Positions 61,302 through 61,622 of a stretch of DNA of 64,000 nucleotides are shown here, piece after piece. The stretch covers positions 18,662,001 through 18,726,000 of the forward strand of contig OX597823.1 in the NCBI GenBank assembly GCA_951406725.2. Reading direction: 5' to 3'. Source of the DNA: Octopus vulgaris (Eukaryota). The notes below the pieces were generated by a model, which was not told the origin of the DNA, ran no database searches, and was given only the letters and a program-made list of their open reading frames with translations. Numbering within the stretch: position 1 is the stretch's first letter; the number at the start of each line of letters is the position of its first letter. The translations under genes were made by a program, and so were the position numbers.

Positions 61302-61356
<55 letters not shown>

Positions 61357-61459
61357 TGGAGTAAACACATAAATGTGAAACAAGGTGGAAAAAAGAGTAC
61401 TCAAATACCAGCGGTAGAGTAATATGCTTTATTTAAAGCAGCAGAAAATTCAACGAAAT

Positions 61460-61497
61460 CTGTTACTCTGAGTTTCTCGTTGCCGTTCATCAGACAG
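61460..61497 (-). ncRNA. Minimal type I hammerhead ribozyme motif
   Basis: CTGT-CTGATGA-A-CG-GCAA-CG-A-GAAA-CTC-A-GAG-TA-ACAG; stem I CTGT/ACAG, GNRA-capped stem II, 1-nt loop III, GUA triplet. Confidence 0.8.
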
Positions 61498-61513
61498 TTT
61501 TTGCTAGCAAAAA

Positions 61514-61551
61514 CTGTCTGATGAACGGCAACGAGAAACTCATAGTAACAG
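61514..61551 (+). ncRNA. Mirror copy of the hammerhead motif, stem III mutated (CTCATAG)
   Basis: CTGTCTGATGAACGGCAACGAGAAACTCATAGTAACAG. Confidence 0.65.
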
Positions 61552-61583
61552 ATTTTGTTGAATTTTCTGCTGCTTTAAATAAA

Positions 61584-61622
<39 letters not shown>

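Follow-up and report, generated by a model that had tools for sequence, protein, structure and literature searches.

The stretch analysed here (the window) comprises 64,000 nucleotides of the Octopus vulgaris genome (assembly GCA_951406725.2, contig OX597823.1, positions 18,662,001 to 18,726,000 of the forward strand). At positions 61356–61584, it carries a palindrome with a hammerhead ribozyme motif in each arm. A Penelope-like element (PLE) has left thousands of such tiny insertions with head-to-head arms, and the palindrome is one of them. The palindrome is loopless, with its axis at 61505/61506 and 79 complementary base pairs between the tailed arm (61427–61505, minus strand) and the short arm (61506–61584, plus strand). 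The arms differ at two sites (61468/61543 and 61455/61556); the inner 37 bp pair without a mismatch. The minus arm carries 71 nt more beyond the paired part (the tail, 61356–61426). All plus and minus numbers are given relative to C3 of the hammerhead core, which lies at 61493 on the minus strand and at 61518 on the plus strand. On this scale, the paired part covers −12 to +66 in both arms and the tail +67 to +137, so that the minus arm extends from −12 to +137. Both arms terminate in (TA)n, with a (TA)26 microsatellite on the left (61304–61355) and a (TA)19 microsatellite on the right (61585–61622) as the two parts of the target, and a target-site duplication would be unreadable because both ends lie inside (TA)n.

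On each strand, CUGAUGA is followed by stem II (2 bp, GCAA loop, A·A foot), GAAA, stem III (loop of 1 nt), and GUA; the type I core (CUGAnGA, GAAA, and UH) and stems I–III were all found. The minus-strand motif occupies 61447–61505 (core 61493–61464, predicted cut after A61464), its stem I is truncated by the axis, and it carries a private T>C change in stem I at 61455 (T in 108/108 sampled arms). The plus-strand motif occupies 61506–61564 (core 61518–61547) and carries a private G>T change in stem III at 61543 (G in 105 of 107 sampled arms). Stem I of the parent element folds from −17 to +46 (more than 4 bp), and the palindrome axis therefore cuts through it. At the axis lies a self-complementary CTAG (61504–61507), corresponding to −14 to −11 of the parent leader. 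An earlier interpretation made from the letters alone (the sequence-only reading) had described a loopless palindrome with two arm differences, a minimal PLE-type hammerhead read on the minus strand with a predicted cut at GUA, and a read-through RNA forming a long double strand. All of these descriptions hold, the last with a predicted hairpin of −128 to −132 kcal/mol. An Rfam scan gave no hammerhead among the matches listed (150 of 351), which contained only microsatellite and hairpin look-alikes.

Exact genome matches numbered 7,964 for a 30-nt hammerhead piece and 5,638 for a 31-nt tail piece, and the reversed control of each gave none. The parent (L198:6867-9002) has an intact open reading frame (ORF) of 711 amino acids, with the hammerhead 205 nt upstream of the ATG and the tail between them; the palindrome thus represents two copies of the 5′ leader of a PLE, which is also its 3′ repeat. 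The model of the parent reverse transcriptase (RT) had telomerase as its top match (Foldseek 3du5, E 2e-10) and compared with telomerase at Z 15.6 and a root-mean-square deviation (rmsd) of 2.9 over 250 aligned residues. The model of the C-terminal domain compared with the I-TevI GIY-YIG domain at Z 8.9 and rmsd 2.3 over 89 aligned residues, followed by T4 EndoII and UvrC. Foldseek by itself gave no match at E ≤ 0.001 here, the parent protein had no match in sequence searches of Pfam and PDB, and weak Pfam matches to GIY-YIG or SegE were obtained for 3 of 18 relatives. In the linker between the RT and the endonuclease, C562, C564, C570, and C576 were invariant in 27 of 27 aligned proteins, and a four-Cys linker is a feature of Neptune and Nematis PLEs in the covered part of PMC8557442. 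A telomerase-like RT in a single ORF, a C-terminal GIY-YIG domain, a one-sided tail, partial tandems, and an inverted truncated partner are present, as expected for an endonuclease-positive PLE, and the first two are shared with published PLEs. By its motifs, the parent may lean towards Nematis. Intact autonomous ORFs of this family (hereafter the main family) were observed at L193:3559-5742 and L198:6867-9002, with two full units head to head in L198, and the family was therefore probably active recently. Partial tandems (pseudo-long terminal repeats, pLTR) occur in L193 and L198, there are 69 leader–ORF junctions, and L073 is a long copy of the palindrome design with kilobase arms.

The architecture of the palindrome is already published. 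Insertions of endonuclease-positive PLEs were described as a 5′-truncated copy with an adjoining inverted truncated copy, a tail at one end, and a (TA)n target (Craig et al. 2021; Arkhipova et al. 2013; PMC8557442, PMC3846280); statements on published systems here refer to the covered parts of the cited texts. The palindrome resembles these units in its head-to-head arms, one-arm tail, and microsatellite target, but its family differs in a tail of 71 nt instead of 30–40 nt and in axes strongly clustered at the start of the leader. Hammerhead pairs on opposite strands, 100–700 bp apart, were previously noted in metazoan PLEs (PMC4209133).

A sample from contig C1, the first 100 of the 5,638 matches to the tail, was used to examine the ends of the arms. 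An inverted partner was present in 80 of these insertions and directly adjoining in 75, nearly all of the partners ending at +66. The main family has two fixed 3′ ends (+137 and, as the second, +66, where the short arm of the palindrome also ends) and a TA target, most sampled tailed ends abutting (TA)n. The 71-nt tail is usually one-sided, with few exceptions such as C1:11814565/11814658, where tail sequence is found on both arms. Among the arms that reach C3, 38 of 60 tailed and 40 of 58 short arms stop at 0 to −18. Stops per 100 nt amounted to 0.3–0.4 downstream of the core, 0.6–0.75 in the core, 4.3–4.5 at 0 to −18, and 0.07–0.17 beyond −50. The upstream edge is a cliff: 51 of 89 arms stop at −13 to −18 versus 4 of 38 at −19 to −24 (p 5e-7), or, counted by insertion, 32/56 versus 4/24 (hand count). 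Stops at the predicted cleavage site were found in 2 of 147 arms. Both arms of a pair pass or stop jointly (12/3/4/56, p 3e-8).

The 75 junctions between arms comprised 49 with overlap, 8 blunt, and 18 with inserted bases, several of the inserts copying nearby sequence. The centres of the copies differ base by base, i.e., the junction is not fixed. The 26-nt centre of the palindrome occurs in 213 identical copies genome-wide versus none for its reversed control and is thus not due to chance. This centre recurs in the A-, G-, and T-type subfamilies (named by position 11.1 of the hammerhead), which indicates that it formed repeatedly. That the palindrome is itself functional or mobile, as a dsRNA switch that hides the ribozyme, a substrate of editing or of Dicer, or a unit copied whole like a miniature inverted-repeat transposable element (MITE), appears very improbable: the long hairpin and the 213 identical centres can be cited for it, but the centres vary and the identical one is spread over three subfamilies, each arm carries a private damaging change, and the core has no excess conservation among copies. 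The locus is probably an ordinary, inert PLE insertion, and the idea of a dsRNA acted on by ADAR is probably incidental to it. MITE-type copying of a unit was rejected, as the internal sequence is not fixed and the junctions differ among copies, and so was a retrozyme of the class without long terminal repeats (non-LTR), as the hammerheads are head to head on opposite strands and not head-to-tail repeats. Non-LTR retrozymes (bioRxiv 10.64898/2026.07.22.740005) are, like the palindrome, short, non-coding, PLE-derived, and equipped with a type I hammerhead, but they are head-to-tail tandems, whereas the palindrome has one hammerhead per strand.

The junctions also bear on self-priming, in which one cDNA folds back and primes the second arm, and resolution by the endonuclease leaves the tail. 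Although this was proposed for rotifer PLEs (PMC3846280), and nearly all pairs share subfamily states between their arms with 30 of 75 pairs ending within 5 nt of each other, we regard it as improbable. A loopless CTAG centre is impossible by intramolecular fold-back, and in 31 of 75 pairs it is the short arm that extends beyond the tailed arm on the upstream side. In 6 of the 75 pairs, the tailed arm does not leave the tail and has no overlap with its partner, so that neither arm as it stands was copied from the other. Moreover, the spliced copies described below imply a sense template, as opposed to the antisense template of the published model, and in vitro work on a PLE showed RT starting at two sites on both strands (PMC11167929).

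A second PLE family (hereafter the sister family) is represented in the window at 58456–58815 by a tail and 134-nt inverted arms in (TA)n, a copy cut short before the hammerhead. Its tail pattern gave 1,629 genome matches, its long copies encode a related protein, and in its hammerhead, stem II is long and has A-U at its foot. Two alternative sequences were found upstream of this hammerhead; among 30 copies, 19 are spliced (running into a short exon) and 11 unspliced (running into the end of an intron). The intron measures 700–857 nt in four long copies and begins with GTATGT in three and GAATGT in one, giving GT..AG borders in 3/4. Pattern matches numbered 300 spliced versus 91 unspliced, which is a rough ratio only because the patterns differ, and spliced junctions were present in each exon subtype. 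All 30 of the spliced copies examined (of 300) stop at most 18 nt from the pattern, within exon 1, eight of them at the A of TCATTG, and none of the 30 extends into sequence further upstream of exon 1. These spliced short copies ending in exon 1 indicate that the short copies of the sister family were made from processed sense RNA and end at the RNA start. Of the sister palindromes with both arms readable, four are spliced/spliced and two unspliced/unspliced, with none of the six mixed. At L368 (G000:C1:8126500-8135500), a spliced 5′ leader, an ORF, and an unspliced 3′ intron copy stand in one stretch, the layout expected for a copy of full-length mRNA. For the main family, a 3′ splice site at −11 was considered and rejected, as some subfamilies lack the AG and no spliced class was found. 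Penelope of Drosophila virilis starts in the upstream repeat and has a leader intron that ends at helix I of the hammerhead (Schostak et al. 2008, PMC2377424), and the sister family is alike in both respects. The D. virilis intron is 75 nt long and was described as retained in genomic copies; in contrast, spliced matches exceed unspliced ones in the sister family, and the main family shows no intron.

We consider it probable, at roughly 0.68, that the short palindromes arose by twin priming on the leader of the uncleaved mRNA, followed by run-off at its 5′ end and joining at microhomologies. Two RTs would prime on opposite strands of the TA repeat, starting at +66 and +137, and priming in the 5′ leader would lead to 83 and 154 nt being copied before run-off at the RNA 5′ end. 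The run-off ends would then be trimmed and joined, presumably by host end-joining, at a microhomology, for which CTAG is the candidate in the palindrome. Priming in the 3′ repeat would give long arms with the intron retained. Tailed arms stall at +56 to +69, the start of the partner, in 10 of 92 cases, three times the neighbouring rate, which would fit two RTs on one RNA. The twin priming step is suggested by PAc of Anolis carolinensis, for which both strands were cut and extended in vitro with uncleaved RNA as the template, and RT had two internal start sites separated by the tail (Frangieh et al. 2024, PMC11167929). The main family resembles PAc in having a hammerhead followed by two RT starts with the tail between; PAc belongs to the Poseidon clade and its starts lie inside the ORF, whereas the main family is a Cys-linker element whose two ends fall within the 5′ leader. 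Neither 5′ junctions nor inverted pairs are a subject of the covered text on PAc. The hammerhead would be carried along because it opens the transcript, and it would act, if at all, between tandem copies of the full element and not in the palindrome. The edge of the cliff is the A of CCATTCT at −17, which fits the initiator consensus YYANWYY, and this match, together with analogy, suggests −17 as the transcription start of the main family.

Several observations weigh against this account. No spliced class was found in the main family (0 of 138 arms), so that analogy and the match to the initiator are the basis for a start at −17, a position that coincides with the foot of stem I. None of the 51 longer-than-unit copies that reach −13 stops at −13 to −18 (p 4e-14 versus first-pass arms); for this set, all 69 leader-to-ORF copies were fetched, of which 62 run far into the ORF. 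The long copies would thus not come from a linear RNA starting at −17 unless a jump occurred, and longer-than-unit cDNA would need a template lacking that end, such as a circle made by hammerhead cleavage (a proposal of PMC4209133) or a multimer from read-through, or else a jump between templates. Two sister-family tandems (L370/L371) still carry the intron acceptor in their 5′ repeat. Deletions that occurred later at the palindrome centres may produce or inflate the arm asymmetry, and the end positions, taken from BLAST, are uncertain by a few bases at microhomologies. Since a single contig was sampled and an exact 31-nt match was required, the sample favours young copies.

The same insertion type could also show a cliff at −17 if a freshly started RT stalled at the foot of stem I or if the cDNA formed a hairpin. 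Stem I does fold from exactly −17, an elongating RT passes this position in 51/51 long copies, and the main family lacks an intron that would mark processed RNA. We nevertheless regard stalling as unlikely, as the stop in the sister family follows exon 1 of the spliced RNA, to which the sister stem I does not extend; RT reaches the 3′ strand of the stem first, yet few stops lie there (4 of 82 at +35 to +55), and the stability of the leader hairpin is not unusual (z −1.6).

Run-off after twin priming can be taken a step further, with a confidence just short of even: the short copies may be fossils of strong-stop cDNA from double priming in the leader of a linear, spliced, uncleaved mRNA with run-off at the cap, and long and tandem copies may come from the unspliced 3′ repeat or a hammerhead-made circle. 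If so, intron retention in PLEs would require no antisense template, the starts of PLE transcription could be read from palindrome axes in any assembly, and the job of the hammerhead would be to provide an endless template for tandems. Stops among the longer-than-unit copies were found in 7 of 59 at +56 to +69 and in 1 of 52 at the predicted cleavage site. The latter copy, L434 (G000:C25:45184305-45187332), is unit-length with its 5′ end at +29, which is the predicted cleavage site, and as one of 52 it may be due to chance. Two repeats within one insertion could be compared in three cases only and showed 0, 1, and 2 differences.

Exact genome-wide matches at position 11.1 of the hammerhead numbered 4,111 for A (A·A), 1,497 for G (A·G), and 396 for T (A-U); in 107 sampled arms, the base opposite A was A in 67, G in 22, T in 15, and C in 3. 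The A·A foot, singled out as atypical by the sequence-only reading, is therefore the commonest state. Among 31 distinct motifs of related PLEs, the foot is G-C in 16, G·U or A-U in 6, and mismatched in 9, and a 1-nt loop III occurs in 7, which places both traits within the range of the clade. The G10.1-C11.1 pair, a criterion for type I hammerheads, is absent from the 107 sampled arms. Among related metagenome loci, 21/78 had a non-coding hammerhead match, and several carry hammerheads both ~150–330 nt before the ORF and after it. Some PLE hammerheads (L233, L247, L267, L290, L300, and L305) have a U·U or C·A foot, often with a 1-nt loop III, and these relatives possibly form a subtype that includes the palindrome family.

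The sequence states of 108 sampled arms sort into subfamilies. Arm-to-arm differences amounted to 7 among 19 pairs of the A·A type that is commonest, 5 among 5 pairs of the A·A type of the palindrome, 14 among 6 pairs of the A·G type, and 21 among 6 pairs of the A-U and A·C types; this was a hand count of 39 pairs, three of which were unclassed, including one set aside because an arm of a neighbour had been mis-picked. The fewer differences in A·A pairs indicate that A·A is recent and A-U older. The insertion is young, as had been thought. A·A, for which a family consensus had been proposed to see whether it is ancestral, is not ancestral and marks the youngest subfamily. U4C was present in 39 of the 108 arms and is carried by the older subfamily types. 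Ordered from older to younger, the subfamilies have CCGACGA, CCGATGA, and CTGATGA as their core, the direction of CpG decay, and this shift restores the canonical U4 while the 10.1–11.1 pair is lost. Core nucleotides no better conserved than the flanks, together with no cleavage at GUA in dimers, had been named as grounds for dropping the reading; the conservation half of this was found among the copies (rare variants in 7/1185 of the core versus 11/2109 of the flank), as expected for dead copies, but the core is kept across distant relatives.

The 1-nt loop III had also been read as implying a dimer. Stem III is indeed self-complementary, and two copies of its 9-mer pair at −7.4 kcal/mol; however, the hammerheads of the palindrome lie on opposite strands, so that one transcript holds one of them and a tandem dimer of the PLE style is impossible. 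The family shares its type I core, tiny palindromic stem III, and predicted dimer activity with the minimal hammerheads that Cervera and de la Pena (2014, PMC4209133) described for metazoan PLEs. The main family differs from those in its 2-bp stem II, GNRA loop, and A·N foot in place of G10.1-C11.1, and in the U4C of its older subfamilies.

How PLEs build inverted repeats and tandems and keep introns, and what role the hammerhead has, are open questions in the covered text of PMC8557442 and PMC3846280. The family-level pattern, including the spliced short copies, bears on PLE replication as left open there and is directly testable. The copy census provides sequence-level tests, in which spliced short copies show that the template was sense and processed, ends are rare at the cleavage site, and longer-than-unit copies pass the stop. 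Sister short copies without the intron and long copies with it would help to explain the apparent retention of introns in PLEs. No 5′-end cliff is described in the covered text of Craig et al. 2021 and Arkhipova et al. 2013 (PMC8557442, PMC3846280), and neither such a cliff nor spliced short PLE copies were found in the literature searched, which consisted largely of openly accessible texts without supplements; papers by Arkhipova and Evgen'ev from 2003, 2005, and 2006 fall outside this coverage and could mention spliced copies.

Elsewhere in the window, the ORF listing of the 64 kb contained nothing assignable as host gene context. A third palindrome at ~1068–1390 consists of (TA)n, a ~100-nt tail, inverted arms on either side of a short AT-rich spacer, and (TA)n, and it probably belongs to another PLE family. 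Immediately right of the TA run, an element at 61623–62090 has imperfect terminal inverted repeats of ~26 nt starting CCGTAAATC, and we take it to be like a DNA-transposon MITE. Repeats at 60600–60840 and 61100–61260, which flank the palindrome, are presumably like short interspersed nuclear elements (SINE-like).
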